The position numbers and the translations under genes are program-made. Below, piece by piece: positions 2,589 through 22,714 of a stretch of 24,343 nt of DNA. Source of the DNA: a virus. Every line of letters starts with the position of its first letter. Positions within the stretch are counted from its first letter, which is position 1. The notes beneath the pieces were generated by a model. The model was not told where the DNA came from and searched no databases. It saw nothing but the letters and a program-made list of their open reading frames with translations. The stretch is taken from the UHGV virus genome UHGV-0344763; one strand, 5' to 3'.

Positions 2589-2591
2589 GGA

Positions 2592-5185: not shown

Positions 5186-6264
5186 CAGAACGGGTCCTCC
5201 TGTACTCTGGCTTTTTTCTTTTTCCGCGCGCCGGGGGCTTCGGGTTCAGGCAGATAAGCATCAGGTGGGCCGACACGGATTTCCGTCAGGGTGCCGTTCT
5301 GGTCCTGAGTAAACGTGACTTCCGAGACAAGCAGTTCGGTATTGTCGAAACCACAGACCGGATCGAAGACAATCACCCGCTGGTTGGGCTGCCACAGCGT
5401 ACCGTTACCCTGTCGCCAGCCCTGCACCACATAGGTGGTTTCATCCGTCCGCGCCGCCCGTTGTCGGGCTTCAAAGTCAGCACGCGCAATACAGCCTGCC
5501 CCCGTAGCCTGCCCTGTCTGCCTGATATACATCGGACGGTAACGGGCAATAAATGCGTCCTCTGTGCGGGCCCGTAGCGCGGTGGTGGTGGCCTCACCGA
5601 AATCATCGTCGTTTCCGGCACGCTGCCCCGCCACCTGGTAAACAGAAAACCGCTCCCGGATACTCTTCTCCGTATCGCAGGAAAGGATGTTTTCCCCAAG
5701 TACCAGCGCGGTATGTGCCCGCGTTGAGCCAATACCGCCAATCACCAGCCTGCCGTGCGTGTCGTCATAAGCCAGCGCCTGCTGCTGACCGAGTATTTTG
5801 TTAATCACCTCGATCACCGTTTCACCGTGATCAGGCTGGACATCAGGAATAACACCCGACGGCGCACCGCTGTTCACCACCTCAATGCCGAAGGGCGCAG
5901 CAAGCGCCTGCGCAATCTGTACCAGTGATCGTCCGTTAAACTGTGTCGGTTCGGCTGCACAGTCAATCAGGTCAGCGGTCAGACTGCGTCCGGCAATACC
6001 GGTGCTGACCGAACGGGCATCGTAACGAACGGGCGTCGCCTCCACCCAGCCGGTGATCACCAGCTCATCACCAATCAGCACCTCCACTTTTGAACCGTTT
6101 TTAATGCGCGGCTGAAGCGTGGTGATACCCTCATCACCCGGCCACTGGCGGGTGATCTCCACACTGAAATCCCGCGCCAGCCGTTCAATACCGGCACCGA
6201 TGCGCACCGATGTCCAGCCATTCCACTCCCGGCCATTTACCCGTAGCGTGACATTGTCGTTCAT
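5185..6264 (-). CDS. Baseplate hub / tail protein, Mu gpP-like (late control D family)
   Basis: 359 aa; follows the DNA circulation protein as in Mu-like tails. Confidence 0.75.
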   Translation of the reverse strand: MNDNVTLRVNGREWNGWTSVRIGAGIERLARDFSVEITRQWPGDEGITTLQPRIKNGSKVEVLIGDELVITGWVEATPVRYDARSVSTGIAGRSLTADLIDCAAEPTQFNGRSLVQIAQALAAPFGIEVVNSGAPSGVIPDVQPDHGETVIEVINKILGQQQALAYDDTHGRLVIGGIGSTRAHTALVLGENILSCDTEKSIRERFSVYQVAGQRAGNDDDFGEATTTALRARTEDAFIARYRPMYIRQTGQATGAGCIARADFEARQRAARTDETTYVVQGWRQGNGTLWQPNQRVIVFDPVCGFDNTELLVSEVTFTQDQNGTLTEIRVGPPDAYLPEPEAPGARKKKKARVQEDPF

Positions 6265-7631: not shown

Positions 7632-7649
7632 TAACAGATTAATTTTTCA

Positions 7650-9485
7650 TTACCTGCCAAAGCGCGTATAGCCAACATCATGGCTGACATCAAAACCGCT
7701 GGATCGCGTTTCCATAACCCGCATACCCGGAGGCGAATTCACAAAAGAGACCTTGATCTCACCATCAACTTTTGGCGCAGAAGCTTTGTTAATCATGAAG
7801 GGATTCGGGCCTGTGGCACCGGAGGCGTTGTTTGACTGAGCCGGATCTACCGCCGGATAAGGTGTGTATCCCCGCGCCGGTATTCCCGCCCCATAAGCAT
7901 CATAAGCACCCGCGCCCCACTGCGCAGAGTTAATGGCATCGACCGTGTCACCGGAACTGTCGGTAAACCACTCAATAATTGGCTTCAGCTTGTCCCACAT
8001 ATCCTGAAACCACTTAACAACCGGCCCCCAGTTATTGATCACCATCCCCAGCGGCGACCAGGCAAAAACTTTCTTAAGGAGTTCCCAGCCAGCCTCAAAA
8101 TAAGGACCAATGGTTTCCCAGAGTTTCTTAAAATAAGGTCCGACAACATCCCAGTTAGTGATAATTAATCCCGCAGCCAGGGCTATCGCCGTCGCAATCA
8201 TGCCAATCGGCGTCATCGACATGATCCTGCTGACAATACTGATGGCACCGCCAACGCCCATCAATCCCAGTTTCAGAATCGCAAGACCGGCAGCAAGCCC
8301 GACGACGCCGCGAATAACCCGGGGATTTTCATCCGCAAACTTCGTGAATTTCTCCCCCACCTCCCCCAGCCATTGCGTGATATTTTTAGCGTCACCAGAA
8401 AATGCGCCGCCAATAGCCGCAAGGCCGTTAGTTGCGGTCCCTGTCATTGCCTCCCACAGGTTGGACAGCGTACCAAGCTGTGCCTGAACACGTTTATTCA
8501 GGCTGGCCTGTTTATTCATCTTCTGCTGGATCTGATCGTAGCCATCCTTTCCTTTATCGATCAGCGCATTGACCACCTGAAGGGTTTCGGCATCATCACC
8601 AAATATTGCCTTAAGTACACCAGTTCGTTTAACGTCGGTCAGTTTTCGCAGCTTTGCCAGTTGCCTGAACATGTTATCAAGACCGCCAAAACTCCCTTTG
8701 CCGTCAGTAAAATCGAGCTGTACCCCGAGTTTCTGGCGGGCCATGATTTTATTGACGTCCCTGATTTTCTTAACGCTTAATCCGGACTGGATAACTTTTC
8801 GCAGGGCGTTACCTGCCGACTCCCCGTTCATCCCCATCTGATCCATCATGACGCTGATGGGGGCAAGGCTCTGTGCAGCCTGAAGACCGTCCTTGTTCAC
8901 CATCTTCAGAACAGAACTGGTTTTAGTGAAGAAGGACAACATGTTGGTATCGTCAACGCCCAGATAAAACGCCTTCTGGATAGTGTCGAACAGCCCCATC
9001 ATGTCTTCTGACGCCGTTCCGGTAGCATCCTGCATCTTTGCGGCAAACTCGGCAGCCGCTTCCGGTGTTTTTTTCAGTTGTACCGCAAGATAAGCTGTCG
9101 CTTTACCCACACCGCCAAGAATGTTTTCTGCCGGGATCCCCTGACGCACCAGCATCTGCATCATGTTCTGAAAATCAGCCGTTGTACCGGGTAGCTGGTT
9201 ACCCAGACCAATAGCCAGTTTATTGATGTCCTGAAAGCTCTTTCCGACCTCACCGTTCGCATCCATCATGGCAACTTTCAGCCCGGTGGCGGCGTTTTCC
9301 TGATCGGCATAAGATTTCAGGGAAAGCGTCAGACCCGCTGCCAGTCCGCCACCAAGCGCCAGCCCACCCTGTGACGCTTCTTCCGCCTGGCGTTTAAATC
9401 CCCGGATTTTCTTTTGCATTTTCGACAGCGCGGGAGAAAGCCTGTCGACACCGGTGATCAACGCCTTAAGCTCAAATTCAGCCAT
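7650..9485 (-). CDS. Tail tape measure protein
   Basis: 611 aa, Ala/Gly/Leu-rich with predicted helical and hydrophobic segments; follows the frameshifted chaperone pair. Confidence 0.85.
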   Translation of the reverse strand: MAEFELKALITGVDRLSPALSKMQKKIRGFKRQAEEASQGGLALGGGLAAGLTLSLKSYADQENAATGLKVAMMDANGEVGKSFQDINKLAIGLGNQLPGTTADFQNMMQMLVRQGIPAENILGGVGKATAYLAVQLKKTPEAAAEFAAKMQDATGTASEDMMGLFDTIQKAFYLGVDDTNMLSFFTKTSSVLKMVNKDGLQAAQSLAPISVMMDQMGMNGESAGNALRKVIQSGLSVKKIRDVNKIMARQKLGVQLDFTDGKGSFGGLDNMFRQLAKLRKLTDVKRTGVLKAIFGDDAETLQVVNALIDKGKDGYDQIQQKMNKQASLNKRVQAQLGTLSNLWEAMTGTATNGLAAIGGAFSGDAKNITQWLGEVGEKFTKFADENPRVIRGVVGLAAGLAILKLGLMGVGGAISIVSRIMSMTPIGMIATAIALAAGLIITNWDVVGPYFKKLWETIGPYFEAGWELLKKVFAWSPLGMVINNWGPVVKWFQDMWDKLKPIIEWFTDSSGDTVDAINSAQWGAGAYDAYGAGIPARGYTPYPAVDPAQSNNASGATGPNPFMINKASAPKVDGEIKVSFVNSPPGMRVMETRSSGFDVSHDVGYTRFGR

Positions 9486-9896
9486 GTGTGCGTTTCTCCT
9501 GCTCTATCCTGTTTGCCTGACTGACCAGCAAGGGAATTTCACTGATCGGCATATTCAGCAATTCGAAGGGATTAATGCGCCAGTAGCTGGCGCAGTCAAA
9601 GAAGCGATCAGTGAGGTATTCAGCCGTCAGGCCTGGAGGAAAAAACCAGCCACAAGCCACGCCGCTGCATTCAGGTCTGCCGGAGACATCTGGTCGACAG
9701 AGCTTTGCGGCACTTTCGCCAGCCGCACAATGTATTTCGACACCACATGCGCCAGAAGTCTGACGGACTCATCCTGATTCATCTGGTAGGGATACCCCAG
9801 CTCGCGGACATCCTTCCCGGTGGGTTCATCAAACTCCAGTACGGAGAGTGTCTCACCATGAGCGATAATCGGTTTCTTTAACTCAAGCTCTTTCAT
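9478..9896 (-). CDS. Tail assembly chaperone, long product by programmed -1 frameshift (G/GT-like)
   Basis: ORF 9478..9660 is in the -1 frame relative to 9627..9896; heptamer T_TTT_TTC at ~9639-9645 (minus-strand sense ggT TTT TTC ctc) permits the slip; -1 frame continues FFPPGLTAEYL... Confidence 0.55.
9627..9896 (-). CDS. Tail assembly chaperone, short (zero-frame) product
   Basis: 89 aa between tail tube and tape measure; contains the slippery site near its 3-prime end. Confidence 0.7.
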   Translation of the reverse strand: MKELELKKPIIAHGETLSVLEFDEPTGKDVRELGYPYQMNQDESVRLLAHVVSKYIVRLAKVPQSSVDQMSPADLNAAAWLVAGFFLQA

Positions 9897-10252
9897 TACT
9901 GGTAATCCCCTTCTTCACCGTGGAACTCAAGATCAACCGTGCCTTCTTCGGCATTATGGTTCGCTTCTCCGTGCAGCCAGGCGGACGACAATACATAGAC
10001 CTGACCGTTCGCCAGCTCGGCAGTGATAGTCATCTCATCAGACGAGGTGATTTTGCTCACCGGAAAATTCTTCGGCACCTTGAAGGTCCCTTTGACATAA
10101 GGCGCACGGTGAGTTTCCTTGCGGTCCACTGAACCGTCCAGGCCGATGATGTCATCATTGACCGTCCTGTTCATGGGCACCTCAATGCCGCCGGTCAGCG
10201 ATAGCTGCTGACCGTCAATTTTGAAATAACAGGTTCCCCCGATACGGGCCAT
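9896..10252 (-). CDS. Tail tube protein (Mu gpM-like)
   Basis: 118 aa immediately after the sheath gene, ATGA-type overlap. Confidence 0.8.
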   Translation of the reverse strand: MARIGGTCYFKIDGQQLSLTGGIEVPMNRTVNDDIIGLDGSVDRKETHRAPYVKGTFKVPKNFPVSKITSSDEMTITAELANGQVYVLSSAWLHGEANHNAEEGTVDLEFHGEEGDYQ

Positions 10253-11748
10253 TATGCAGACTCCTCTGAATACTGAAGACGGAACTGGTTAACCACGGCA
10301 AAGACACGCAACTGGTTAACATAGTCAGGCGGGAACAGCGTGTTCAGGCGGTTCGGATCGCTGGCATCACGCTCCACAACCAGGTACTGCTTAAACAGTT
10401 CGTAGTTTTCCACGATCCCCGCACGCTCAAGCTGACGGTAGGTTGCCAGCAGTTCCCCTTTGATCACCGCCGGGGTGACAATCGCCTGACCGGGACCAAA
10501 GCGGGTACCGTCACTGGCAAGCTTGTGACGCCCGTACTTACTGGTAATGACGGATTTCAGTTTGCGCAGTACATACGCGCTGGTATGCAGAGTCTCACTG
10601 TCTAGGTAGCTGTTATCCGCAACCCCGTAAGCGTTTTTCCTGTACGTGGTGACATCACGCTGAATGCGCAGTACCCCGCTTTCGACATACGCCGTTGCCA
10701 CGCCATGAGACAGCAGGGTCTGTTGTTCGGTCATCGTGAACCGTTTCCCCTTCGGCGCAGGCAGCATACCCACCAGCTCACCGGTCTGCGTGGGACGTGC
10801 CGGATCGTTGCGAATAAACACCGCTGCGCGGGCGGTACGGCTTGCCGCCAGCTCGTCGGCAGGCGTCTGGGTCTCTTTTTCGTATCCCGCCAGGGTAATG
10901 TGCTGCTGGTTAAACTGGTCACCTGCGGTCACCAGTTCTGACAGCGTGCCGATCTTTGCCGTATACACATGACCATACAGCTGACGCGCATAGCTCCAGC
11001 GACCGCTGGTATCGTTCATCTCGGTCACCAGCGTGTTAACGGAGGCCGTGTCGTTGAACGGCAGGCCGATATAATCAAACGGCTCATCCGCCATTGCAGC
11101 CACCGCGCCGGTGAGAACAGGAGCGCCCGTTCCGGCGGTACCCGTCGCCACGGCAATCTGTACGCCCGCTGGCAGCACTTCGCCCCCACCAAAGCCGTAG
11201 TAATTGAGGCTGACAGGAATTTCATTCCCGCAAAGCCCCTTATGACGCGCGGTCAGTGTGACCACGCCTGCCGAAGATGAGGCAGTAAACGGCAGGGTCG
11301 GAACGGCATTGATGGCATCCTGGATACTGCTGGCAATCGTCGCAACGTTATCGCCGTTGGTCACCGGTGCCTGCACGCGGGTACGTCCCACATAAACATT
11401 CACCGTGCCGGTTTCGGTTGCCGCGCCGGTCACCGTCAGCGTAACCGTTGCCGCCGCGCCCGTGGATTCAGGAACGGCAATCACATACAGCTCGCCAAAC
11501 GGGTCGGTCTGGCGATAAGCCTCGACCATACGCGCCAGCTGACTTCCCGCACCACAAATCTGGCGTGCATAGTCTGCCGACGGCATCAGTACCAGACTGT
11601 TGGCAACAATCTCTGCACCGTTATTGGCATGACCAATCAGCAGCGATGCTCCGCTGTCCTGTGCAGTATTCGCCGCCTGATTATCCATTTCCGCATAAAA
11701 CAGCGGAACCAGCGTATTCGACGGAATGGTGTTAAAGCTTATCGTCAT
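10252..11748 (-). CDS. Contractile tail sheath protein (Mu gpL-like)
   Basis: 498 aa; size and operon position. Confidence 0.85.
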   Translation of the reverse strand: MTISFNTIPSNTLVPLFYAEMDNQAANTAQDSGASLLIGHANNGAEIVANSLVLMPSADYARQICGAGSQLARMVEAYRQTDPFGELYVIAVPESTGAAATVTLTVTGAATETGTVNVYVGRTRVQAPVTNGDNVATIASSIQDAINAVPTLPFTASSSAGVVTLTARHKGLCGNEIPVSLNYYGFGGGEVLPAGVQIAVATGTAGTGAPVLTGAVAAMADEPFDYIGLPFNDTASVNTLVTEMNDTSGRWSYARQLYGHVYTAKIGTLSELVTAGDQFNQQHITLAGYEKETQTPADELAASRTARAAVFIRNDPARPTQTGELVGMLPAPKGKRFTMTEQQTLLSHGVATAYVESGVLRIQRDVTTYRKNAYGVADNSYLDSETLHTSAYVLRKLKSVITSKYGRHKLASDGTRFGPGQAIVTPAVIKGELLATYRQLERAGIVENYELFKQYLVVERDASDPNRLNTLFPPDYVNQLRVFAVVNQFRLQYSEESA

Positions 11749-11902
11749 CGGTGTTCACCTTTTTATTCACGCGCCGGATATCACCCGCTACTTCACGGCG
11801 CAGCCAGTAGTTGTTCTCGTCAACATTTCGCCCTTCGGCGGGCAAAAGGTCGCCGCGGGCAGGGTCAGGAACTGACCGCCCTTTAACAGGTTTGACAAAC
11901 AT
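11732..11902 (-). CDS. Small hypothetical protein (56 aa) preceding the sheath gene; not in the ORF track
   Basis: Hand translation MFVKPVKGRSVPDPARGDLLPAEGRNVDENNYWLRREVAGDIRRVNKKVNTDDDKL; ATG preceded by GAGGA; fills the otherwise empty 160-bp gap. Confidence 0.4.
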   Translation of the reverse strand: MFVKPVKGRSVPDPARGDLLPAEGRNVDENNYWLRREVAGDIRRVNKKVNTDDDKL

Positions 11903-11910
11903 GAGGATCC

Positions 11911-12471
11911 TCAGGAAGGAAGGGTTATTTCGGTGTGATGTTCGATATCGCCGTCAGGCCCGTTACCGGGCTCGAGATAATCAACATCAATCGCCAGCGT
12001 TTGCAGTTCATCCAGACTGTTCAGATCATCCTGCTGGCGGGTATCGTCTTCAGTCAGCTCGCTGATGACCGAAAAATCGAACTGATAAATCAGCTCATGA
12101 CGATTCAGATCCAGCAGCGTGCCGCCGTCATAGGTAATCGGGTTACCGCACGCTTCCGGGTTCCAGCCCAGCAGGGCCTTAAAGAGCATCTGCCGGACAT
12201 CGTCCACCACATCATACGAGGCAAACTGACCGCGCTCATCACGCCCGTTACTCAGTATGACAACCACGGAGAAGCCCTCTTTCAGCTCCTGCCAGTAGTC
12301 GGTCTGGCTTTTGTTTTCTCCCGGAGAGTCATCACCCGGTACCACATACGCCGCCGGGAGTCTCAGCTTTCCGACCTCCGGCAGATTTTTGAACTGTGCC
12401 GCGCCTGCCACCCGGTTTTCAAAATACGGGCAGCGGGCACGCAGCGCAGCAATAACAGGCGTCAGTTTCAT
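11911..12471 (-). CDS. Putative tail completion / neck protein
   Basis: 186 aa, between head-tail joining genes and sheath; function by position only. Confidence 0.55.
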   Translation of the reverse strand: MKLTPVIAALRARCPYFENRVAGAAQFKNLPEVGKLRLPAAYVVPGDDSPGENKSQTDYWQELKEGFSVVVILSNGRDERGQFASYDVVDDVRQMLFKALLGWNPEACGNPITYDGGTLLDLNRHELIYQFDFSVISELTEDDTRQQDDLNSLDELQTLAIDVDYLEPGNGPDGDIEHHTEITLPS

Positions 12472-12974
12472 CTGTGTCGTCGCTCCGGCTTCAGTGATTT
12501 ACGCAATTCCCGCGCCAGAAAATAGCGTGTCCAGCTGCGGTTCTTTTCAAGCGTTTCCACCATGAAGTTATTACGTGGAGCCAGTCGCCAGCCGCTGCCA
12601 CCGGATGCACCACGATGATGACTACGACGACGTTTTGCTCCTCCCCGGACACCAAAAAACAGAAACGCCGGATAGAAGTCACCAGAGATCATCCGGTTCC
12701 CCTTCCCGTTGCGCTGGTTAGGGGCAATGCGTGTCATAAAACCGGCTCGCTTTTTACTGGCTCTCGGCACCATATAACCAATCGAACGAGCCAGGCGTCC
12801 GGTCTGATAACCGGGGTTTTCACCCGGTGCCGACCGCGCACGGCGCATCACCAGCCGACGGGCATCACGCATATGACGCTGCCCAATCGTGACAAACGCC
12901 CGCCGGACACGGGCGCGGTTAAAGCGCATCTCGGCGGGCTGCTGAACATCAACGTGAAAAAAGGGAGTCGCCAT
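12468..12974 (-). CDS. Phage virion protein, strongly basic (Arg-rich); possibly HK97 gp10-like or virion morphogenesis family
   Basis: 168 aa, tightly packed (4-nt and 26-nt overlaps with neighbours); unusually high Arg/Lys content. Confidence 0.5.
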   Translation of the reverse strand: MATPFFHVDVQQPAEMRFNRARVRRAFVTIGQRHMRDARRLVMRRARSAPGENPGYQTGRLARSIGYMVPRASKKRAGFMTRIAPNQRNGKGNRMISGDFYPAFLFFGVRGGAKRRRSHHRGASGGSGWRLAPRNNFMVETLEKNRSWTRYFLARELRKSLKPERRHR

Positions 12975-13359
12975 TGCTGCCTCCGTGACTCTGCCTACAT
13001 TCGCCCAGCTCCGTACACTCCAGCAGCAGAAAGCGCCGCGCCCCGTTCAGATCACGCTGACGTTTCACCCGGTACACACTGTCATCACAGACCACCTCAT
13101 AATCAGCAGTGATCCCCCGGCGGTAACGAATGGTGATGTAATGGGTGATGGCGTCCCCGGTCTGCGCGGTTTCCTGCCAGGTGGTGGCACTGGTCTGGAT
13201 AACCTTCGCCCATGTCCGGAACGTAACCGGGTATTGAGGCTCCACGCCAAAGTTATCCGCGGGCATATCCACCCGCAGGCGGATCAGGACGCGTTTATTC
13301 AGTTCACCGGGGTCCGGCAGAATGTAGGTTGCGCTGGTCTGCGCCTGACGAATTTTCAT
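12949..13359 (-). CDS. Head-tail adaptor / head closure protein (putative)
   Basis: 136 aa directly downstream of the gp6-like connector. Confidence 0.6.
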   Translation of the reverse strand: MKIRQAQTSATYILPDPGELNKRVLIRLRVDMPADNFGVEPQYPVTFRTWAKVIQTSATTWQETAQTGDAITHYITIRYRRGITADYEVVCDDSVYRVKRQRDLNGARRFLLLECTELGECRQSHGGSNGDSLFSR

Positions 13360-13679
13360 TGCGGAAAGTACCTGTACGGGCCGACAAGCCAGCCAAAACT
13401 CTGCGGCATGTCGAGTTTCTCCACTTCCGTAACCGACGAGCGGTTTTCGTAAAAATGGCTGATAAGCATCAGCATCCCCAGACGAATATCATCCGTCAGG
13501 TGCAGCCCGTCCGGATCGCTCTCCGGAATGGTTTCATCCGGTGCATAGAGCTTCCGGTTCAGATACGTTTCCGTCCGCTTTTGCGCCGCACAGGCCAGCA
13601 GTTGCAGATGGCGGTCATCAGCATCGAAATCCTCATCCAGCCGGAGTTGGGCTTTAATCTCTTCCATTGTCAGAAGCAT
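13356..13679 (-). CDS. Head-tail connector protein (gp6-like)
   Basis: 107 aa; N-terminal MLLTMEEIKAQLRLDEDFDADD motif typical of gp6-like connector proteins. Confidence 0.7.
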   Translation of the reverse strand: MLLTMEEIKAQLRLDEDFDADDRHLQLLACAAQKRTETYLNRKLYAPDETIPESDPDGLHLTDDIRLGMLMLISHFYENRSSVTEVEKLDMPQSFGWLVGPYRYFPQ

Positions 13680-13681
13680 AC

Positions 13682-13882
13682 TCAGCCCTCTTTACTGGTC
13701 GTGGCTTTTTTCTCTTTTGCCGCTTTACTGCTTTTTGCACTGGTTCCGCGCTCTGCTAACCCGGCCTGAAGTGCAATCTCCTGCACCCGGGCAGGAAGCG
13801 CCCCGTCGTCATACTCACCGGCCCGAATGACCTCAACACGCATACCGTCCGGTGACCATTTCAGATCTTGTTTCAGGATCAT
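13682..13882 (-). CDS. Small hypothetical head-associated protein with Lys/Ser-rich C-terminal tail
   Basis: 66 aa between the capsid-gene hairpin and the connector gene; C-terminus AKSSKAAKEKKATTSKEG. Confidence 0.45.
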   Translation of the reverse strand: MILKQDLKWSPDGMRVEVIRAGEYDDGALPARVQEIALQAGLAERGTSAKSSKAAKEKKATTSKEG

Positions 13883-13904
13883 GATTCTTCACCCGTCAGA
13901 ACAG

Positions 13905-13924
13905 GGGGCGCGGTTCCGCGCCCC
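13905..13924 (-). promoter_or_regulatory. Perfect GC hairpin just downstream of the major capsid gene
   Basis: ggggcgcgg tt ccgcgcccc (9-bp GC stem) 8 nt after the capsid stop; no U-run, so not a canonical intrinsic terminator. Confidence 0.5.
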
Positions 13925-13931
13925 TGAGTGA

Positions 13932-15137
13932 TTACGCCGCTGCAATCTTCAGCAGTTTGATGGCCTGCGAATCTACCAGCATCCCGCCGGTGCGCTTGGT
14001 GGTATAAAAACCGACAAACGGTTTATTGGTGTACGGATCACGCAGAATGCGGGTGCCGATACGGTCAACGATGGTGTAACCCCGTTTGAAGTTACCAAAT
14101 GCAATGGCTTTCGCATCAGCGGCGATATCCGGCATCTGTTCGTTTTCAGCGATACCGTAACCCGCCAGAGAGGACGGCTGCCCCAGTTCCAGCCCCGGAC
14201 GCCACAGATAGTTACCCTCGGTGTCTTTCAGCAGACGGATGGCAAACAGGCTGTTGTTGTTCATCATGAACTTCGCGCCAGTGCGGTGTGCCTTACGCAG
14301 CGTGTAAATCAGTTTGATAATGGCGTCTGCGGTCACCGCCGTCGCGTCGCCGGATACAATATGCTGAAGTTTGCCGAACGCCCGGACCTTGTCGGTTTCA
14401 TCCGTGGATTCATACGCCAGGAACCCTTTCGGCTTCTTGGTACCATCGCCGGTGGTAAAGGCAATTTCTTCCTGTTCGGCAAATTCGGTTGCCAGCTCGC
14501 TGTTGATCCAGGCCTCCACGTTGAAAAAGGCATCATCCAGCATTTTCTGGGTGGCCTGCGGGTTACCGTAGATTTCCCCCATGAAAGGTTCAATCAGCCC
14601 CAGTTTTGAGGTGGCAGTCTGGGAGCGCGCGTCAGTCTCGCCAACCCATCCGGAAGCCGTGCCGCCCAGATTCACCAGTTTTTTGTAGTCGGAACCACCA
14701 ACGGTGATCACCGTGGCTTCCTGACGCATCACCACTTCATCTTTCAGCAGGTTAAGAATGTTGCGATCCAGTTCTTCCGGCACGGCGTAGCCACCGTCTT
14801 CATCGGTGCCCACCTGCAATGCCTTACGCTCCAGATCGCGCAGACCGTCTTCACGGCCTTTACGCAGGAAGCCCACAAACGCCTCTTTATGCTCGGTGGC
14901 CAGTTTATTTTGCGCACCACCTGCCGGACGTTTCAGCTCAAGCAGCTCTTTTTCAAGATCGCTTTTGAGGTTTTCCAGCTCGCTGAGTTTCCCGTTCAGG
15001 GTTTCCACCTGCCCGGCAAGTTTGCCTTTTTCCTGCTCAATCGCATCCACGCGCTTGTCGTTCTTTGCTTTGAAGTCGTCAAACTTCTGCTGCAGCTCCT
15101 GCGCGACCTGTTCGACATCTTTAATATCAACCGCCAT
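13932..15137 (-). CDS. Major capsid protein, HK97 family
   Basis: 401 aa; coiled-coil-like N-terminal delta region followed by capsid domain; follows the prohead protease. Confidence 0.9.
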   Translation of the reverse strand: MAVDIKDVEQVAQELQQKFDDFKAKNDKRVDAIEQEKGKLAGQVETLNGKLSELENLKSDLEKELLELKRPAGGAQNKLATEHKEAFVGFLRKGREDGLRDLERKALQVGTDEDGGYAVPEELDRNILNLLKDEVVMRQEATVITVGGSDYKKLVNLGGTASGWVGETDARSQTATSKLGLIEPFMGEIYGNPQATQKMLDDAFFNVEAWINSELATEFAEQEEIAFTTGDGTKKPKGFLAYESTDETDKVRAFGKLQHIVSGDATAVTADAIIKLIYTLRKAHRTGAKFMMNNNSLFAIRLLKDTEGNYLWRPGLELGQPSSLAGYGIAENEQMPDIAADAKAIAFGNFKRGYTIVDRIGTRILRDPYTNKPFVGFYTTKRTGGMLVDSQAIKLLKIAAA

Positions 15138-15151
15138 CGTATTTCTCCTGA

Positions 15152-15838
15152 TTAGAAGTTCAGATTTTTCAGTGCATTCAGTGCAGAGCCCACATCCTCA
15201 GCGTCGCGCAGGGACAGTGCGCCATAGCCCCCGGCCATGAATGCTTTGGCCTGGGTACGGGAGAGTCCGACATCACGCAGGACTCTTTCGATTTTTTTCT
15301 GTTCGGGGATTTCCCCGCGGGCCAGTGCGTTCTTGACGTCGCTGATCCGCGCCTCGTCGTTAGACGGGAATGTCACCAGACTGACTTCCCAGAGGTCGAT
15401 TTCTTTCAGCAGAAAGGCTTCTTTCGTCCGGTCGTATTCCCAGTCCTTCAGGACGTACCCAATAGAAAGGCCGGTTAACGAACCGGCCTTCATGTGTGCA
15501 TGTGCGCGTTTTGCCAGGGGATCATCATCAATGAGCAACCGCCCCCTGACGTAAAGCCCGACATCGTCTTCCTTCATTTCGGTGTAAACACCGATGGGCT
15601 CATCCATGCGGTGCTGCCAGAGCAGCGCAGGTAACGCTTTTCTGTCACTCCACGCCCGCAGGGAAGCAGCAAATGCCCCGGACATCACCACATCATCGTG
15701 GCTGTCCTTTACACCAAAGACGGAGCCATACCCTTCAAACTCACCGGAGTCACTGACAGATTTCAGACTCAGCGGTACATCAAGACGTTGTTTCGTCTGC
15801 ATTGGCGTTATCCTTCTGCTTACCGGCTTTACTGCCAT
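15152..15838 (-). CDS. Prohead protease, HK97 family
   Basis: 228 aa between portal and major capsid genes; true start may be the internal Met (MQTKQRL...). Confidence 0.85.
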   Translation of the reverse strand: MAVKPVSRRITPMQTKQRLDVPLSLKSVSDSGEFEGYGSVFGVKDSHDDVVMSGAFAASLRAWSDRKALPALLWQHRMDEPIGVYTEMKEDDVGLYVRGRLLIDDDPLAKRAHAHMKAGSLTGLSIGYVLKDWEYDRTKEAFLLKEIDLWEVSLVTFPSNDEARISDVKNALARGEIPEQKKIERVLRDVGLSRTQAKAFMAGGYGALSLRDAEDVGSALNALKNLNF

Positions 15839-17021
15839 CGGAGGGTTTCGTGGTCATGTTCATCGGTGTGAGATAGACATCCCCACCGGGACGCGGATTC
15901 ATATCTTCCAGGTCGCGGCAGTCATTGGGAGAGTAAATTCCCCAGTTAATCCCGGTGGCGTAGGCTTCAAAACGGGACTTCATATCCCCGCGCAGTAACG
16001 CCCCGGCGTTAAATTTGGCGTAATAAACGCCCTGCTTACTTTTTCGTACCAGTCCGGTGTTGATCCGCTGTTCGATGCGGGTCAGATACGGCACCAGTGA
16101 ATAGTTGATAAATCCCAGCCCCAGCTCTTCGATATTGTTGAAGGTGGCGCGATCGGTGTTCTGCACCATGTGCAACGGCACCCGGAACAGACGACAGATT
16201 TCTTCAAGCTGAAACTTGCGGGTTTCCAGGAACTGGCTGTCCTCGGCGTTCAGCGCCATCGACTTCCAGTCCAGCCCCATCTCAAGGATCATCGGGCGGT
16301 GAGCATTGCCAAGTCCGGTGTGACGCTCCTCAAAATCTTTCTTCAGGCGCTCATAAGCCTGATCTGACAGCGTCTGCTCTGTACGCAACACACCCGACGT
16401 CACCGCGCCATTGCTGAACAGTCTGGCCCCGTGCTCTTCGGTCGCTGCCGCCAGCGATATTGCCTCGCGGGCATAGGCGATGGGATTCAGCCCCACCAGT
16501 CCGTCCAGCGTCAGCGTGCGCACATGCCAGATATCCTCCTGGCTCAGTACATCCGTGGAGCCATCCGGGAATGTGACCTGATAGACCGGCTCCCAGCTAC
16601 TGTTAAGCTTCGGTACCACACAGCCGGGATCGACGGGCAGCAGTTCAGCCACTTCGCCAAATGCTTTCACTTTGTAGGCGTAAAAGTTTCCCCGCAGGCA
16701 CAGACAGGTGACCACCAGCTCCCAGAACTCCTGCGGCGTCATATAGCCATTGGGATGCGTGGAGATCAGCTTATGCAGACGTTCGCCAGTGGCTCTCTGC
16801 TTCAGGCTGCCGTTCAGGTGATACAGGTTGCAGGGCAACATCCCGACCGACTCCGCCAGCACCCTGACACAGGAAAAAACCGCCGTCAGTCGCATGGCCC
16901 GCTGGCTGCTGATCTGCTTTCCGGTATAGGTGTCGTAGGACAACCCGATAGCATCCGCCAGCTCTGCTGGCGTGGTCATCGGTGCGTCACTTTTTCGTTG
17001 AAATAATCCCGAAAAAAACAC
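15780..17021 (-). CDS. Portal protein, HK97 family
   Basis: 413 aa; GTG start at 17021 preceded by GGAGG (an ATG at ~16979 is an alternative start). Confidence 0.9.
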   Translation of the reverse strand: MFFSGLFQRKSDAPMTTPAELADAIGLSYDTYTGKQISSQRAMRLTAVFSCVRVLAESVGMLPCNLYHLNGSLKQRATGERLHKLISTHPNGYMTPQEFWELVVTCLCLRGNFYAYKVKAFGEVAELLPVDPGCVVPKLNSSWEPVYQVTFPDGSTDVLSQEDIWHVRTLTLDGLVGLNPIAYAREAISLAAATEEHGARLFSNGAVTSGVLRTEQTLSDQAYERLKKDFEERHTGLGNAHRPMILEMGLDWKSMALNAEDSQFLETRKFQLEEICRLFRVPLHMVQNTDRATFNNIEELGLGFINYSLVPYLTRIEQRINTGLVRKSKQGVYYAKFNAGALLRGDMKSRFEAYATGINWGIYSPNDCRDLEDMNPRPGGDVYLTPMNMTTKPSDGSKAGKQKDNANADETTS

Positions 17022-17203
17022 TATTTACCTCCGCCGACAGACGACTGTGTACGCTCAAGATATCGCGCCACCAGCCACGACCAGAACAGGCACAACGCCC
17101 CGGCAACAACAAACCCCGCCGGGGGATAAATCAGCCAGGCACCATACGCCAGCAAAAGCGCCCCCAGCACGCCCACCAGAGGCGCGAGAATCAGCATGAT
17201 CAT
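17021..17203 (-). CDS. Small hydrophobic membrane protein (two predicted TM helices)
   Basis: 60 aa [55 protein letters not shown]...; ATG preceded by GAGGT; stop overlaps the portal GTG start; wedged between terminase and portal. Confidence 0.55.
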
Positions 17204-17214
17204 AATTACCTCAG

Positions 17215-18948
17215 TTAAAGCGAGCGGATCCCATAGGACTCAATGTGGTCAGACAACGTGTCTTCTTTCTCGTACAGCATGGCTCTGCCAACCGCCATAA
17301 TCAGCGCAACTGCACCATCGATTTTGTTTTCCGCCTGCTCTTTGACGGGCTTCACCACATCATCGTTACCCGGAATGGTTTTGCCGACCACGTTGCCGAT
17401 ACACCAGGTCATGATGGGATTGCCATCATGATGAAAGCGCCCCGATTCAATTGCCGCTTCCAGCTCTTTCATCGGGTCGGACATGTTGGTGTAGTTCTGA
17501 ATGATAGTGATGGGGTTCAGGTCTTCATCAGCAAGGTCATGTGACAACCCGGTCGCCCCGAAGGGGTCGATGGGTGACTCACTGACCGGGCTGATTTTGT
17601 TCGCCGCTTTGGCCTCCTCGAGGATGTAGCGATAATCCACCTCCGCACCATCGGTAACGGTCAGAACGCCCATTTCCACCCATTTCTGAAAGCGTTCGGC
17701 TGTCCGGCGATCTTCATTTTTCTCGACGCTGTACACCGTGTCATACGGTACCCAGAAACGCGGGGCCACACTGTAGTAATGCGTTTTACCGTCAATCTCG
17801 CGGGTATAAAGTCGCGCCATGCTGTTCATATCCAGCTTACGCGCCAGGTCAAAGGCCAGAATGCACGGCTGCCCCTCGAACTGCTCAAGGGTCAGTGATT
17901 TATCCTCGCAGCTCTGCCAGCTCACCAGGTTGAAATACGCCGAACGCGCCGACACCCAGATATTGAGGTGCTTTGTTTTAAAGACGTTTGCCAGACGGGC
18001 GTTATTTTTCGCACGCTGCTGCTGACTTAACAAAAATTCGCGATAAACCGACACGCCAATATTCGGGTTAGCTTTTTCCAGCACCTGCGGGTCGGTCCAG
18101 TCATCGCCTTCGTCAACGGTATAGATGATCCCGAACAGTTCATCATTGGGTACCGACCCGTTGAGCATCTCGATAACTTCCCGCCGCTTGTCGTAGCACG
18201 GCCCCTCAATGTTGTACCCGGCAGTAGTAATGGCCCACATCAGTGGCTGACGTCGCGCCCCCATCCCGGTAAGCATCGTGGTGTAAAGCGCATCGGTGGC
18301 GTGCTCGTGATATTCATCCACCACCGCACAGTGGGGTGATGATCCATCACCGGGGTTACCGATCAGCGGTTCAAACCGCGCGCCATCCTCCGGACGGTTC
18401 ATGTTTGAGGCGTTAACCTCAATCCCGAACGCTTCCGTCAGCATGGGCGTGCGTTTACACATCAGTCGCGCCGGGCGAAAGACTTCCCACGCCTGTTTCT
18501 CTGTCGTGGCACCGGAATACACTTCCGCGCCAAACTCGTTATCACAGGCAAAACAATACAGGGCGACACCGGCAGAGATTGCCGATTTGCCGTTCTTACG
18601 GGGGATTTCGGTATACACCTCCCGGAAGCGGCGCAGCCGGGAGCCTTTATTGACCCAGCCAAACGCACAGCAGATCACAAAGAGCTGCCACGGCTCCAGC
18701 GTGATGGGCATCCTCTTGAATGCCCACTCACCCTTGGTGTGCGGCAACAGCTGAATAAATTTGGCGGCCCGTTCAGCCAGGTCCTTGTCGAAGCGGTAAC
18801 GAAACGACTTACTTTTTTCCGCCATCAGGTCATCAAGATGGCGCTGGCAGGCCTGAATCACAAACTGGCAGGCCACAATCTTTCCGCGAACGACATCCCG
18901 GGCATACTGATTGGCAGCATTTACGTTGGGGTAAGATTTCCGGCTCAT
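17215..18948 (-). CDS. Terminase large subunit
   Basis: 577 aa; Walker A-like IPRKNGKS; ATGA overlap with the small subunit gene. Confidence 0.9.
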
Positions 18949-19448
18949 GATTCGATGATTTTCAGAAACGGGTTAGTAGCTTTCTTCTGCCCCGCCAGGC
19001 CAATCAGACGCTGGCGGCTGCTGGGGTCGAGTCCGAGCATTGCCCCCGTGCTGCTCATCTCGGACTCCTGTTCTTTTTTGGCGGTCAGCTCAGGATTTTT
19101 GACCATACCGCCCATTGCACCGGTGATGGTGTTGCCCTGTCTGGCAATATTTTTCACGGCACGTCGCCAGAACTCATAGGCCACACACCACCGCTCAAGC
19201 ACCGCGAGGTCAGTCACGCACAGCAGGCCCTGACCGCAAAGTTCTTTAGTTGTCAGTTGCCACATGATCGTGGCGAGAGGGAGATCTTCTTCAGCGAACC
19301 ACTCCGGTGGCTCAACACCTTTGATGGGCGTAAAAACAGGTTCATCTTTATTCAGGGCTCGCTTGCCGGGGTTTCCGGCCAGCGCCTTGCGCGCCGTTGG
19401 CTTGGGGCGACGCCCGGAACGCCCCGCCGTTCCAGCCATATGCGGCAC
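18945..19448 (-). CDS. Terminase small subunit (P27 family)
   Basis: 167 aa; basic N-terminus; directly upstream of the large terminase gene and downstream of HNH/cos region. Confidence 0.85.
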
Positions 19449-19564
19449 TCCTGGTTAAATTTCATTTTTCGCGGGTATAAAAAAACGATGGGGCGGGCAG
19501 TCCGGAAGACGTCAGGTCACAGAGATTTGACCCGCCCCTCCCCTCAGACAGTTGAGAATTATTA
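19449..19564. other. Candidate cos / packaging-initiation region
   Basis: Intergenic between HNH and small terminase genes (the cos position in HK97-like phages); inverted repeat tggggcgggc (~19489-19498) and gacccgcccc (~19529-19538) flanking ~30 bp, followed by a T-run on the minus strand. Confidence 0.4.
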
Positions 19565-19915
19565 TCACTTTAACCGTTCACGGGCCGTCTTCGCCTTATG
19601 GCAGGGCCAGCACAGACTCTGCAGATTACTGTCGGCATCAGTGCCGCCATGCGCTTTAGGGATGATGTGGTCAACGGTTTTCGCCTCACGCACCACACCG
19701 GCACGCAGACATAACTGACACAGACCTTTGTCACGCTTCAGAACACGCGCGCGGATACTGTCCCACTTCGAACCGTAGCCGCGCTGATGACGGGATTGTC
19801 CAGGTTTGTATTGCTTCCAGCCTTCGCTTTTGTGGCTTTCGCAGTAGCCTGAAGGGTCAGTAGTGGTATGGCGGCAGCCGCGAACACGGCAGGCTTTCGG
19901 GGTTCGTGGCGGCAT
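19565..19915 (-). CDS. HNH endonuclease (packaging-associated)
   Basis: 116 aa; Cys-rich N-terminus and the H-N-H core (DHIIPKAHGGTDADSNLQSLCWPCH). Confidence 0.85.
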   Translation of the reverse strand: MPPRTPKACRVRGCRHTTTDPSGYCESHKSEGWKQYKPGQSRHQRGYGSKWDSIRARVLKRDKGLCQLCLRAGVVREAKTVDHIIPKAHGGTDADSNLQSLCWPCHKAKTARERLK

Positions 19916-20420: not shown

Positions 20421-20690
20421 TCATTTTTTTTGCATGATGTGACCACGCTCAACTTCAATCCTTCTGATGTCAGCTTTATCGGTATTACACTGCGCCAATG
20501 CAGACAACAAGGCGACATTCAGATCTAAGCTCGAGCCCCACGTAAAATGATCAGGTAAATCAGGCTGAGGGGTTTCAGCCGTCAGGCTGGCTGGTAACGG
20601 AACTACCGGAACCTGGACGTAAACTGTTCGCGTACTTCCGCAACCGGTCAGCAGCGGCAGCAGGCACAGGACGTGAAGCACAATCATCAT
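20421..20690 (-). CDS. Rz1-like o-spanin (outer-membrane lipoprotein)
   Basis: Internal start MMIVLHVLCLLPLLTGCGS... with lipobox LTGC and Pro-rich mature part; begins inside Rz in another frame and extends past its stop. Start codon choice uncertain. Confidence 0.6.
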   Translation of the reverse strand: MMIVLHVLCLLPLLTGCGSTRTVYVQVPVVPLPASLTAETPQPDLPDHFTWGSSLDLNVALLSALAQCNTDKADIRRIEVERGHIMQKK

Positions 20691-20967
20691 CCGCAACAGC
20701 CACTTTGATATCTTCCTGGGTTCTCTGTGACTCCAGTGCGATCTGCTGTTTTGCATGCTGGTTAGCCTCTATAACTGTATTGATGATTTGCAGTGATTGC
20801 AGGACGTTACTGGTAATGGCTGTTGCAGATTCAGCATTTCGTACAGCCTCATCAGCACGCTCCTTTTCGTGTTGATATTTGCTGTAGTAATGCCCGGCAG
20901 ACCAGATAAAAGAACCGATGACGGTAACAAAGAAGGCAACAATAACCAGCTTATATCTCAGCTTCAT
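20575..20967 (-). CDS. Rz-like i-spanin
   Basis: 130 aa; N-terminal TM helix (LVIVAFFVTVIGSFIW) then charged helical region; immediately downstream of endolysin. Confidence 0.7.
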   Translation of the reverse strand: MKLRYKLVIVAFFVTVIGSFIWSAGHYYSKYQHEKERADEAVRNAESATAITSNVLQSLQIINTVIEANQHAKQQIALESQRTQEDIKVAVADDDCASRPVPAAAADRLRKYANSLRPGSGSSVTSQPDG

Positions 20968-21427
20968 TTACCACCCCACCAGCTTCTTTAAATCGGGAAA
21001 TCAGGTCACCGATTCTATGTTCATACTGACCGTAACCTGCACCAGGTAACGACGCCCAGATATTGCTGCAACGGTCGATTGCCTGACGAATATCGCCGCG
21101 GTCAATCATCGGTAAAGCGCCACGCTCTTTAATCTGCTGCAGCGCTACAGCATCCTGACTTTCTGGAGAAAAATCTTTCAGACCAAGTTGCTTGCGGTAG
21201 GAATCCCACCAGCGAGAAAGAAGCTGGTAACGTCCGGCGGCTGTTGATTTGAGTTTTGGGTTTAGCGTGACAAGTTTGCGAGGGTGATCGGAGTAATCAG
21301 TGAATAGCTCTCCGCCTACAATGACGTCATAACCATGATTTCTGGTTTTCTGACGTCCGTTATCAGTTCCCTCCGACCACGCCAGCATATCGAGGAACGC
21401 CTTACGTTGATTATTGATTTCTACCAT
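20951..21427 (-). CDS. R: Endolysin R (lambda-type lytic transglycosylase)
   Basis: 158 aa, [39 protein letters not shown]... closely matches my recollection of lambda R. Confidence 0.9.
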
Positions 21428-21734
21428 CTTCTACTCCGGCTTTTTTAGCAGCGAAGCGTTTGATAAGCGAACCAATCGAGTCAGTACCGATGTAGCCGAT
21501 AAACACGCTCGTTATATAAGCGAGATTGCTACTTAGTCCGGCGAAGTCGAGAAGGTCACGAATGAACCAGGCGATAATGGCGCACATCGTTGCGTCGATT
21601 ACTGTTTTTGTAAACGCACCGCCATTATATCTGCCGCGAAGGTACGCCATTGCAAACGCAAGGATTGCCCCGATGCCTTGTTCCTTTGCCGCGAGAATGG
21701 CGGCCAACAGGTCATGTTTTTCTGGCATCTTCAT
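21411..21734 (-). CDS. S: Holin S (class I, lambda S107/S105 type with MKM dual start)
   Basis: 107 aa, [39 protein letters not shown]... matches lambda S as I recall it; three TM segments. Confidence 0.9.
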
Positions 21735-21737
21735 GTC

Positions 21738-21755
21738 TTACCCCCAATAAGGGGA
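21738..21755 (-). promoter_or_regulatory. Stem-loop over the S ribosome-binding site (sdi-like)
   Basis: Minus-strand sense CCCCttattGGGGGtaagacATG: the hairpin 3-prime arm overlaps the Shine-Dalgarno region for Met1. Confidence 0.5.
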
Positions 21756-21976
21756 TTTGCTCTATTTAATTAGGAATAAGGTCGATTACTGATAGAACAA
21801 ATCCAGGCTACTGTGTTTAGTAATCAGATTTGTTCGTGACCGATATGCACGGGCAAAACGGCAGGATGTTGTTAGCGCGACCTCCTGCCACCCGCTTTCA
21901 CGAAGGTCATGTGTAGAAGGCCGCAGCGTAACTATCACTGATGAATTCAGGATAGCCAGTGGCTACGGCTCAGTTA

Positions 21977-22052
21977 TGGTGCTGTTTAACGGACTTGAAC
22001 CGCTACCCATTCGCTTACAAGGCGACCGCTCTACCATTGGAGCTAAAACAGC
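21977..22052 (-). tRNA. tRNA, anticodon UGU (Thr) by hand folding
   Basis: GCTGTTTTAGCTCCAATGGTAGAGCGGTCGCCTTGTAAGCGAATGGGTAGCGGTTCAAGTCCGTTAAACAGCACCA: perfect 7-bp acceptor stem, D-arm with GG, TTCAAGT T-loop, encoded CCA; one G.A mismatch at the top of the anticodon stem. Confidence 0.7.
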
Positions 22053-22057
22053 ATGTT

Positions 22058-22132
22058 TGGCGGGACAGCGTGGACTCGAACCACGATAAGAAGGTTAACA
22101 GCCTTCCGTAATCACCTTTATACGACTGACCC
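22058..22132 (-). tRNA. tRNA-like gene, anticodon GUU (Asn-like), atypical
   Basis: GGGTCAGTCGTATAAAGGTGATTACGGAAGGCTGTTAACCTTCTTATCGTGGTTCGAGTCCACGCTGTCCCGCCA: perfect anticodon stem and CUGUUAA loop, canonical T-arm, encoded CCA, but mismatches in acceptor stem (T.T) and D-stem. Confidence 0.5.
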
Positions 22133-22136
22133 AAAT

Positions 22137-22178
22137 AAAAAAAGCCACCGTTGCAACTTAAGAGTCACTAACGGCAGC
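22137..22178 (-). terminator. Candidate tR-prime-like terminator of the short constitutive late transcript
   Basis: Minus-strand sense gctgccgtt...aacggtggc followed by TTTTTTT, ~40 nt downstream of the candidate late promoter; stem is imperfect. Confidence 0.4.
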
Positions 22179-22188
22179 TTACCTTCTA

Positions 22189-22218
22189 ATTATGGCTAAA
22201 TGGATAATTGCATGTCAA
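22189..22218 (-). promoter_or_regulatory. Candidate late promoter (pR-prime-like) overlapping the 3-prime end of Q
   Basis: Minus-strand sense TTGACA (plus ~22213-22218), 18-bp spacer, CATAAT (plus ~22189-22194). Confidence 0.5.
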
Positions 22219-22714
22219 GGCTTTTAACAGCAACATGCTTAACTTTCTCAACACGTTTACGCATTTTGAAAGCATTTTGCATTGGCTGGTACAAAACAAA
22301 TAACGATGCTTTCAGGATGTCGTCAATTTCGTTTCTACAGGTTGCTAGTGAAGGTTTTCTCCATCCCTCGCCACCACGTCCACACATCTTGCGTGGCTTT
22401 GCAGTCGCGTGATAGTAGGATGCAATTGCTCGCTTAGATGAACCATGAGCGTAGTAGCTGAGGAGGATGCCAAAGGCTTTCTTGTCAATGCACATGACGG
22501 AATCGACGACCTGAGAAATCAACATTCCATCATCATCATTGCACATTGGCCTTGTCATAACTCTTCCCGGCTCTACGCTCTCCATGAACTTCGCTATTAC
22601 GCTGCTCATGCGCTTTTCCAGACGACCTGAATAAACCCATGCGCCCCACAGTTCAAGCCAGCCATTCAGCCACTCATGCTGTTCTTTGGTGAGGTTTAGT
22701 TCTCTTATGCCCAC
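22196..22714 (-). CDS. Late antiterminator Q (non-lambda Q type)
   Basis: 172 aa located between the nin/phosphatase genes and the lysis cassette, ending at a strong promoter plus nearby terminator; Cys-containing central region. Assignment is mainly positional. Confidence 0.6.

Follow-up and report, generated by a model that had tools for sequence, protein, structure and literature searches.

The 24,343 nucleotides (nt) of the UHGV virus genome UHGV-0344763 analysed here, referred to as the window, carry two transfer RNA (tRNA) genes in the interval between the antiterminator gene Q and the holin gene S. A preliminary description made from the letters alone had placed two tRNA genes, 5 nt apart and on the minus strand, in this Q-to-S interval. 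ARAGORN and the Rfam model RF00005 (gathering score 29), both run on the whole 24,343-base window, bear this out: the window holds exactly two tRNA genes by ARAGORN, with Rfam in agreement, and both lie on the minus strand.

22058 to 22132, minus strand: tRNA-Asn(GUU), called by ARAGORN; Rfam 55.3 bits, E = 1e-9; anticodon at 22099-22097
22053 to 22057, minus strand: inter-tRNA spacer AACAU, 5 nt, read from the sequence; equal spacing in phage 21, Sf6 and HK446
21977 to 22052, minus strand: tRNA-Thr(UGU), called by ARAGORN; Rfam 61.2 bits, E = 3e-11; anticodon at 22019-22017

ARAGORN, Rfam and RefSeq agree on the anticodons UGU (Thr) and GUU (Asn), as had been proposed by hand folding, and neither a pseudogene, a non-tRNA nor another anticodon was returned for either gene. 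In an Escherichia coli genome with an identical copy, RefSeq annotates both genes as tRNAs and the pseudogene flag is absent. The feature had been drawn to end at 22135; it does contain the tRNA pair, and its last 3 nt belong to the T-tract of the upstream terminator, tRNA-Asn starting at 22132.

Both sequences fit the RF00005 cloverleaf, with stems of 7, 4, 5 and 5 base pairs (bp), above threshold, and the 3′ CCA is gene-encoded in each. Host tRNAs scored alike gave 73.8 bits (thrU), 72.6 (asnT), 64.9 (glyT) and 53.4 (tyrU); both phage tRNAs score under their host cognates, yet inside the range of genuine E. coli tRNAs. Minimum-free-energy folding of the single tRNAs did not recover the cloverleaf, which is usual for unmodified tRNA sequences and was not weighed against tRNA identity.

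The two genes depart from the standard tRNA in different places. tRNA-Asn has the discriminator G73, a 4-nt variable loop, the anticodon stem GAAGG/CCUUC and the anticodon loop CUGUUAA. The mismatches that had been noticed in its acceptor and D stems are real and correspond to U4·U69 (22129/22065) and U13·U22 (22120/22111). tRNA-Thr has G1-C72, C2-G71, A73 and U28-A42. It had been called a clean Thr(UGU) tRNA, which holds for the anticodon and fails for the remainder: G27·A43 (22026/22010) is unpaired at the base of the anticodon stem, and position 14 is C (22039) where A14 is usual. Among the conserved tertiary and loop nucleotides checked (U8, A14, G18G19, A21, U33, R37, G53-U54-U55-C56, A58, C61 and the 3′ CCA), tRNA-Asn has all and tRNA-Thr has all but A14.

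Elements for charging are in place in both genes. Asparaginyl-tRNA synthetase (AsnRS) of E. coli reads G34-U35-U36 and the discriminator G73, all of which the phage tRNA-Asn has, matching host asnT. The E. coli tRNA-Thr identity set of G1-C72, C2-G71, G35 and U36 is likewise complete in the phage tRNA-Thr, and it is invariant in the 19 tRNA-Thr variants described below. With the required elements present, host AsnRS and threonyl-tRNA synthetase (ThrRS) would be expected to charge the phage tRNAs. The tRNA-Thr of phage 21, a near-identical allele, decodes ACA in vivo (PMC12445682).

The pair as a phage-21-type cassette

The tRNA-Asn/tRNA-Thr pair is an already known cassette, and its finding as such adds nothing new. 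Its identity to the pair annotated in phages 21, Sf6, SfI, BTP1 and HK446 is 96-100%, and this closeness, together with a position directly after the terminator tR′ and before the lysis genes, places it in the phage-21-type cassette. The SfI paper used tRNAscan-SE to identify, downstream of Q, tandem tRNA genes with anticodons GUU (Asn) and UGU (Thr), and named Sf6, ST64T, PS3 and p21 as carrying the same pair (PMC3636060). The annotation dates from the Sf6 and SfI genome papers; the function of the Thr member was published in 2025.

Over a 1-kilobase (kb) region the identity is 98% to Shigella phage Sf6, HF4s, CurroJimenez and vB_EcoP-720R6; the Salmonella phages SPN9CC and BTP1 align over 85% of that length at about 97% identity. 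Both tRNAs are annotated in several of these relatives, the Sf6 label reading 'similar to phage 21'. The structural and tail genes of the window (2238-19564) are instead about 97% identical to the lambdoid myoviruses SfI, SfII, SfIV and SfV. Gene order, the 5-nt spacer and the start directly after tR′ are all as in phage 21, Sf6, SfI and HK446, and the backbone is the sole difference: the Q of the window is of Q21 type, in an SfI/SfII-like myovirus prophage, and in HK446 both Q and tR′ are of lambda type, with the tRNA junction again directly following that tR′. HK446 has the phage 21 alleles of both tRNAs. Compared with the phage 21 copies, tRNA-Asn of the window differs at 1 nt (D-loop position 20) and tRNA-Thr at 3 nt (the 5:68 pair and position 26).

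Variety of backbone bears on one account of the pair, integration compensation or tRNA-dependent lysogeny, in which the phage tRNA-Thr would replace a host tRNA-Thr gene damaged at integration. SfI-like phages integrate in thrW (PMC3636060), and such lysogeny has been described for other temperate phages (PMC10865867). However, SfI- and P22-type attP rebuild thrW (PMC3636060, PMC8022706), the cassette occurs in unrelated lambdoid backbones (phage 21, Sf6, HK446 and BTP1) and is not bound to thrW, and tRNA-Asn would be left unexplained. We regard this account as barely tenable.

The cassette is present in 369 of 5,426 complete E. coli genomes (about 7%), and the tRNA-Asn sequence is kept across phages of Escherichia, Shigella, Salmonella, Shimwellia and Klebsiella. 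In IMG/VR a tRNA-Asn pattern matched at least 120 loci, which with the window and the fetched phage loci make 127 arrays; counts of arrays, copies and variants given from here on are among the matches listed. The arrangement is Asn-Thr in 98 of the 127 arrays; the other arrays include Gly(UCC), Phe(GAA) or Arg(UCU), as an addition or a replacement, or no longer have a detectable Thr gene. The window allele of tRNA-Thr (U5-A68, G26) is a minor one, found in 6-7 of about 106 copies.

The slot between Q and the holin looks like a small hotspot for tRNA arrays, with Asn-Thr-Gly(UCC), Asn-Phe(GAA)-Thr-Arg(UCU) and other arrangements in JLK-2012, a further locus (L007) and IMG/VR contigs. Gly(UCC) is among the tRNAs depleted by OLD (preprint 10.64898/2026.07.10.737580). 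In JLK-2012 the late-leader region also contains, downstream of tciA/tciB, a match to the small RNA STnc100 at 2269-2441 (Rfam, 107 bits); the window has no STnc100.

The cassette can be exchanged as a module. HK75, HK629 and CUS-3 have Q, tR′ and the S leader in common with the window and carry, as do other phages without the pair, another segment of about 205 nt where the tRNAs would sit. In HK75 this segment lies at about 1180-1385 on the minus strand, between tR′ and a conserved AACTGAGCCGTAGCC, and it contains a perfect T-arm-like motif, GCCGGTTCGATTCCGGC. The segment is lambda-type spacer. A hidden tRNA or known RNA in the HK75 segment was considered and rejected: ARAGORN found none, and the Rfam result was a 17-nt T-arm-like partial match of 10 bits.

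The slot is also, as the preliminary description had pointed out, the one in which phages encoding Shiga toxin (Stx) carry tRNAs. The 933W-type set ileZ-argN-argO comprises Ile and Arg tRNAs for rare codons and lies between Q/tR′ and stx, upstream of stxAB. The window is like that set in its genomic slot and in its expected dependence on Q antitermination. It falls outside the set in its anticodons, GUU and UGU, and in that the list of open reading frames (ORFs) contains no stx ORF or other toxin-sized ORF between Q and S.

Conservation and covariation of the tRNA-Asn gene

The preliminary description had suggested that tRNA-Asn might be diverged or decaying, or have a non-canonical role. We compared 19 distinct variants of each tRNA, those of tRNA-Asn drawn from about 120 loci, and measured covariation against 500 shuffles. 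Positions 30-40 and 44-58 of tRNA-Asn were fixed by the retrieval pattern; the acceptor stem, the D stem and 27-29/41-43 are the informative parts. In standard numbering the pairs 5:68, 6:67 and 7:66 correspond to columns 5:67, 6:66 and 7:65 of the pair table.

The mismatches of tRNA-Asn are conserved: U4·U69 is kept in 15 of the 19 variants and U13·U22 in all 19. At five pairs (5:68, 6:67, 7:66, 28:42 and 29:41) the only changes are double and compensatory. In total, six tRNA-Asn pairs have double changes, and the covariation of 0.137 (0.042 when shuffled) was reached by none of the 500 shuffles. For tRNA-Thr five pairs have double changes, with a covariation of 0.141 against 0.072 shuffled, again reached in 0 of 500; the window and phage 21 alleles themselves differ by one such compensatory change, U5-A68 against G5-C68. 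Position 14 of tRNA-Thr is C, in some variants U or G, and never A. Pairs kept by compensatory change, as expected of a functional gene, were thus found in the Asn and Thr genes alike, and on this comparison the structure of both tRNAs is under purifying selection.

These observations bear directly on whether tRNA-Asn could be a decaying or non-canonical remnant without a decoding role. Its two U·U mismatches, its 4-nt variable loop and an Rfam score 17 bits under that of host asnT would suit a remnant. However, the mismatches are conserved rather than random and the pairs around them covary; the anticodon loop, T-loop, G73 and CCA are intact; and the same tRNA-Asn sequence recurs in phages of five enterobacterial genera. 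Moreover, host glyT has the same type of D arm, UCGUAUAA-GG-AUUAC, U13·U22 included. The remnant reading is largely refuted and, in our estimate, extremely improbable. Decay to a pseudogene was ruled out by conservation, by covariation and by the RefSeq annotation as a tRNA. The seemingly odd tRNA-Asn is a conserved, selected gene.

Across relatives tRNA-Asn is the better-conserved member; degeneration and recombination affect the Thr slot instead, with ST64T and JLK-2012 as examples. The second slot of ST64T and phage L (1289-1357) contains a diverged element, with acceptor and T arms descended from the Thr gene, that scores 42 bits with Rfam and is missed by ARAGORN. In the phage L paper this element is named tRNA-Leu(UAA) (PMC8022706). 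At 1289-1364 in JLK-2012 we found a hybrid tRNA-Thr(UGU) whose 5′ half is of phage type and whose 3′ half is of host thrU type, and one IMG/VR contig is similar. Pairs 27:43 and 28:42 of the hybrid are mismatched, leaving a 3-bp anticodon stem; it scores 49 bits with Rfam, and ARAGORN misses it. Its composition suggests that the phage tRNA recombined with host thrU, which may be a further way of arriving at a shortened anticodon stem.

A mosaic of the other gene is found in Atlantibacter subterraneus, where a tRNA-Asn has the cassette acceptor stem (GGGUCAG/CUGUCCC) with U4·U69, G73 and CCA, and entirely different D, anticodon and T arms. Retention of the mismatched stem on another tRNA body also speaks against decay.

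Relation to tRNA-cutting nucleases

P2 Old is a Toprim tRNase that destroys host tRNA-ThrU, and phage tRNA-Thr(UGU) genes rescue Old-activated cells by standing in for the cleaved host tRNA (PMC12445682). Two changes are required together for resistance to Old: alteration of the CNG motif and shortening of the anticodon stem. tRNA-Thr21, the phage 21 tRNA, has both determinants (C28U/G42A and an unpaired 27:43), is cleavage-resistant in vitro and 'also protected against P2-OLD' (PMC12445682). The related HK446 Thr(UGU) tRNA gave strong counter-defence against OLD (preprint 10.64898/2026.07.10.737580). Another nuclease directed at tRNA-Thr, HepS of Gifsy-1, acts most on Thr(GGU), then on Thr(UGU), Thr(CGU), Ile(GAU) and Ser(GCU) (PMC13043305).

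Of the two resistant tRNAs in Govande et al. 2025 (PMC12445682), tRNA-Thr6 and tRNA-Thr21, the latter is matched by the window tRNA-Thr throughout the anticodon arm; the two differ outside that arm only, at 5:68 and 26. The window tRNA-Thr has the UGU anticodon. Where host thrU has CUG/CAG and UAAUCA, it has UCG/CGA and UAAGCG, so that the CNG motif (28-30/40-42) is altered in the same way as by C28U/G42A. Its stem is shortened by G27·A43, found in the window and in 19 of 19 variants. The preliminary description had ranked tRNA-Asn as odd and tRNA-Thr as clean; that ranking is inverted, in that the deviations with a documented function belong to tRNA-Thr, whose unpaired 27:43 and U28-A42 are the published determinants of resistance to P2 Old. 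By this identity the window tRNA-Thr would have the same Old-protective role as the phage 21 allele, serving as a nuclease-resistant stand-in for host tRNA-ThrU.

Host tRNA-Asn is a target of the same kind of enzyme. tRNA-Asn(GUU) is a slower substrate of Old (PMC12445682) and a secondary target of Old and PARIS alike (PMC12445682, PMC12409363). AriB, the PARIS nuclease, targets Lys(UUU), Thr(UGU) and Asn(GUU); the cut falls between 40 and 41, beside the shared U36-A-A-U39, with U39 and N41 mattering, and U39A abolishes AriB cleavage of tRNA-Lys (PMC12409363). Host asnT has CGG/CCG and UAAUCC at these positions and the window tRNA-Asn has AAG/CUU and UAACCU, which leaves it without CNG on either strand and without U39. 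Both window anticodons are among the AriB targets, and both genes have substitutions around the 40|41 site, U39 being replaced by G in Thr and by C in Asn.

The T5 variants of tRNA-Lys, tRNA-Thr and tRNA-Asn neutralise PARIS (PMC11464382, PMC12409363), and the window has two of the three anticodons of these rescue tRNAs. In a T5-like phage, moreover, the Asn and Thr genes are adjacent and have the same U39 replacements. The likeness stops at the absence of tRNA-Lys(UUU) from the window and at an identity to T5-like tRNAs of 59% (Asn) and 74% (Thr).

The pairing of Thr(UGU) with Asn(GUU) also recurs in five Pseudomonas prophage loci. There the order is reversed, tRNA-Asn following tRNA-Thr after 3 nt, and the Asn sequences are unrelated. 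The Pseudomonas tRNA-Thr has the GUCGC/GCGAA anticodon arm and C14, as in the enterobacterial tRNA-Thr. In the one locus examined (L178), the pair lies between NinG with an ORF in the position of Q on one side and a lambda-family holin on the other.

Overall, we consider it likely that the pair is a functional phage-21-type cassette at the head of the late operon of an SfI/SfII-like prophage, with a nuclease-resistant tRNA-Thr and a likely Asn counterpart. In the mechanism that we propose, tRNA-Asn(GUU) would most likely be the equivalent for Asn decoding against Toprim tRNases of the Old and PARIS types, a counter-defence role suggested by its substitutions. A fuller version can be put forward only tentatively, at somewhat less than even chances. 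In it Asn(GUU) would be a second nuclease-resistant replacement and the cassette a two-tRNA module against Toprim tRNases (P2 Old and AriB-like enzymes); the determinants would be G31-C39, the loss of CNG and perhaps U4·U69, and the Thr and Asn pairing would have been assembled repeatedly, at the late-operon head of enterobacterial and Pseudomonas lambdoid phages and in T5-like phages. Knowledge of what tRNA-Asn does would help to explain why about 7% of complete E. coli genomes have the cassette in their prophages.

Several points weigh against these interpretations. A viral Thr(UGU) tRNA alone failed to rescue lambda from OLD (preprint 10.64898/2026.07.10.737580). The GUCGC/GCGAA anticodon arm is not phage-specific and also occurs in chromosomal tRNA-Thr of unrelated bacteria: scanning contigs for the 17 nt of the Thr anticodon arm, a pattern not long enough for a clean census, gave 71 matches, about the number estimated by chance for 596 Gb, and 25 of the 71 lie within tRNA-Thr genes, many of them chromosomal in unrelated bacteria. 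A resistant tRNA-Lys(UUU) is absent from the window and from the 127 arrays, and therefore the pair alone could not neutralise B185 PARIS, of which tRNA-Lys is the main target (PMC12409363). The anticodon stem of the window tRNA-Asn is fully paired over 5 bp, and a CNG change alone left tRNA-ThrU unprotected from Old (PMC12445682); Old resistance of tRNA-Asn is therefore not predictable. In addition, the Klebsiella-type tRNA-Asn, which makes up 11 of 121 copies, has CNG on both strands.

The classical view, held in the SfI and phage L papers, is that the tRNAs supply codons for late-gene translation, a role which their position at the head of the late operon suits. ACA stands at 17.3% in SfI against 7.1% in the host (PMC3636060), and in the capsid gene of phage L 24 of the 25 Asn codons are AAC (PMC8022706). 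We compared codon usage in the 24 late ORFs of the window with two small K-12 gene samples of about 5,000 codons each. Thr is somewhat more frequent in the late ORFs, at 66 per 1,000 codons against 45-54 in the K-12 samples. However, ACA makes up 11.5% of their Thr codons (7.6 per 1,000) against 21% (9.5 per 1,000) in 20 ordinary K-12 genes, and Asn stands at 41 per 1,000 against 43 in K-12; with neither ACA nor Asn enriched, simple codon supplementation is unsupported by these counts. The SfI authors, too, saw no bias accounting for tRNA-Asn (PMC3636060). Codon supply further leaves unexplained why the anticodon stems differ from those of the host exactly at positions of nuclease recognition, and why overexpressed host tRNA-ThrU fails to rescue cells from Old when the phage tRNA-Thr succeeds (PMC12445682). 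The two functions are compatible and not mutually exclusive; as the explanation of the pair, codon supply seems unlikely.

The late leader and transcription of the pair

The genes and signals around the pair, in the order of transcription, are as follows.

22196 to 22714, minus strand: Q antiterminator of phage-21 type, 172 amino acids; an ORF with a match to Pfam PF06530 Phage_antitermQ (E = 1e-25), annotated as Q in Sf6 and phage 21; stop codon at 22198-22196
22189 to 22218, minus strand: late promoter PR′, with TTGACA at 22218-22213, an 18-nt spacer and CATAAT at 22194-22189 (11 of 12 matches in a promoter scan)
22133 to 22182, minus strand: 50-nt late leader RNA with the terminator tR′; hairpin at about 22178-22144 and U-tract at 22143-22133 (U7AUUU)
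21735 to 21976, minus strand: untranslated leader of S, lambda-type, by alignment with Sf6 and HK75; common to phages without tRNAs
21411 to 21734, minus strand: holin/antiholin S of the lambda family, an ORF and the first protein gene of the late operon; homologues annotated in Sf6, HK75 and E. coli NS-NP030

The spacer region of PR′ contains tandem Q21-type repeats, AATTATCC/ATTTAGCC, at 22209-22194, which the phage L paper names as the probable Q-binding element (PMC8022706), and the Sf6 counterpart of the promoter is annotated as 'nearly identical to phage 21 late promoter'. Between PR′ and tRNA-Asn stands a strong terminator, tR′, that the preliminary description overlooked. Its fold has an energy of -20.8 kcal/mol (z = -4.66; none of 200 shuffles equally stable), and its U-tract abuts tRNA-Asn, which starts at the very next base. 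The Sf6 record labels the hairpin tR′, and the phage 21 record has a 50-nt 'aRNA' ending 1 nt before tRNA-Asn.

The earlier suggestion that the tRNAs could be transcribed constitutively from the prophage is doubtful in the light of this terminator. The promoter scan found no separate tRNA promoter between PR′ and the tRNAs, and there is no space for one downstream of tR′; tRNA transcripts must therefore read through tR′, which makes Q-dependent late expression the default expectation. Judged from this layout, transcription of the tRNAs should be mainly Q-dependent, by antitermination, or arise from leak through the terminator, and the cassette, lying behind tR′, is best regarded as acting late and in dependence on Q. 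The timing of its expression would follow the same pattern. For BTP1, the wording of an RNA-sequencing study hints at a high tRNA signal in lysogen cultures; a high rate of spontaneous induction of that phage tempers this signal (PMC7067206).

In the sequence of events that we propose, RNA polymerase starting at PR′ would normally halt at tR′ after the 50-nt leader. With Q, or by occasional read-through, transcription would run via both tRNAs into S-R-Rz and the structural genes, and RNase P and 3′ trimming would release the tRNAs from the late transcript.

Such processing could itself be what the tRNAs are mainly for, as RNase P and RNase E entry sites through which the leader and tR′ are separated from the late mRNA or that mRNA is stabilised, with decoding secondary. 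The placement of the cassette between the terminator and the first late gene agrees with this, and the phage L authors treat tRNA excision from the late mRNA as unsettled (PMC8022706). However, lambda-type phages, HK75 and CUS-3 express the same S leader without a tRNA, and the anticodons and synthetase identity elements, needless for a pure processing signal, are strictly conserved. We consider this role highly improbable as the main one.

Within the S leader, a GC-rich hairpin followed by GUUUUG (about 21893-21851, minus strand; z = -1.3) is conserved in Sf6, HK75 and HK446. Its folding energy is unexceptional, and it may be another terminator or have a structural role. Further downstream, an ORF at 20421-20756 on the minus strand overlaps Rz (20575-20967) and has a lipobox-like LLTGC, as expected of the embedded o-spanin Rz1. 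The minus-strand ORF at 19565-19915, just upstream of terminase-like ORFs, has HNH-like Cys/His motifs. A putative small terminase (18945-19448) and a large terminase, the latter by homology (17215-18948), follow on the same strand, and this order of an HNH-like ORF and terminases is typical of cos packaging modules of the HK97/SfV type.

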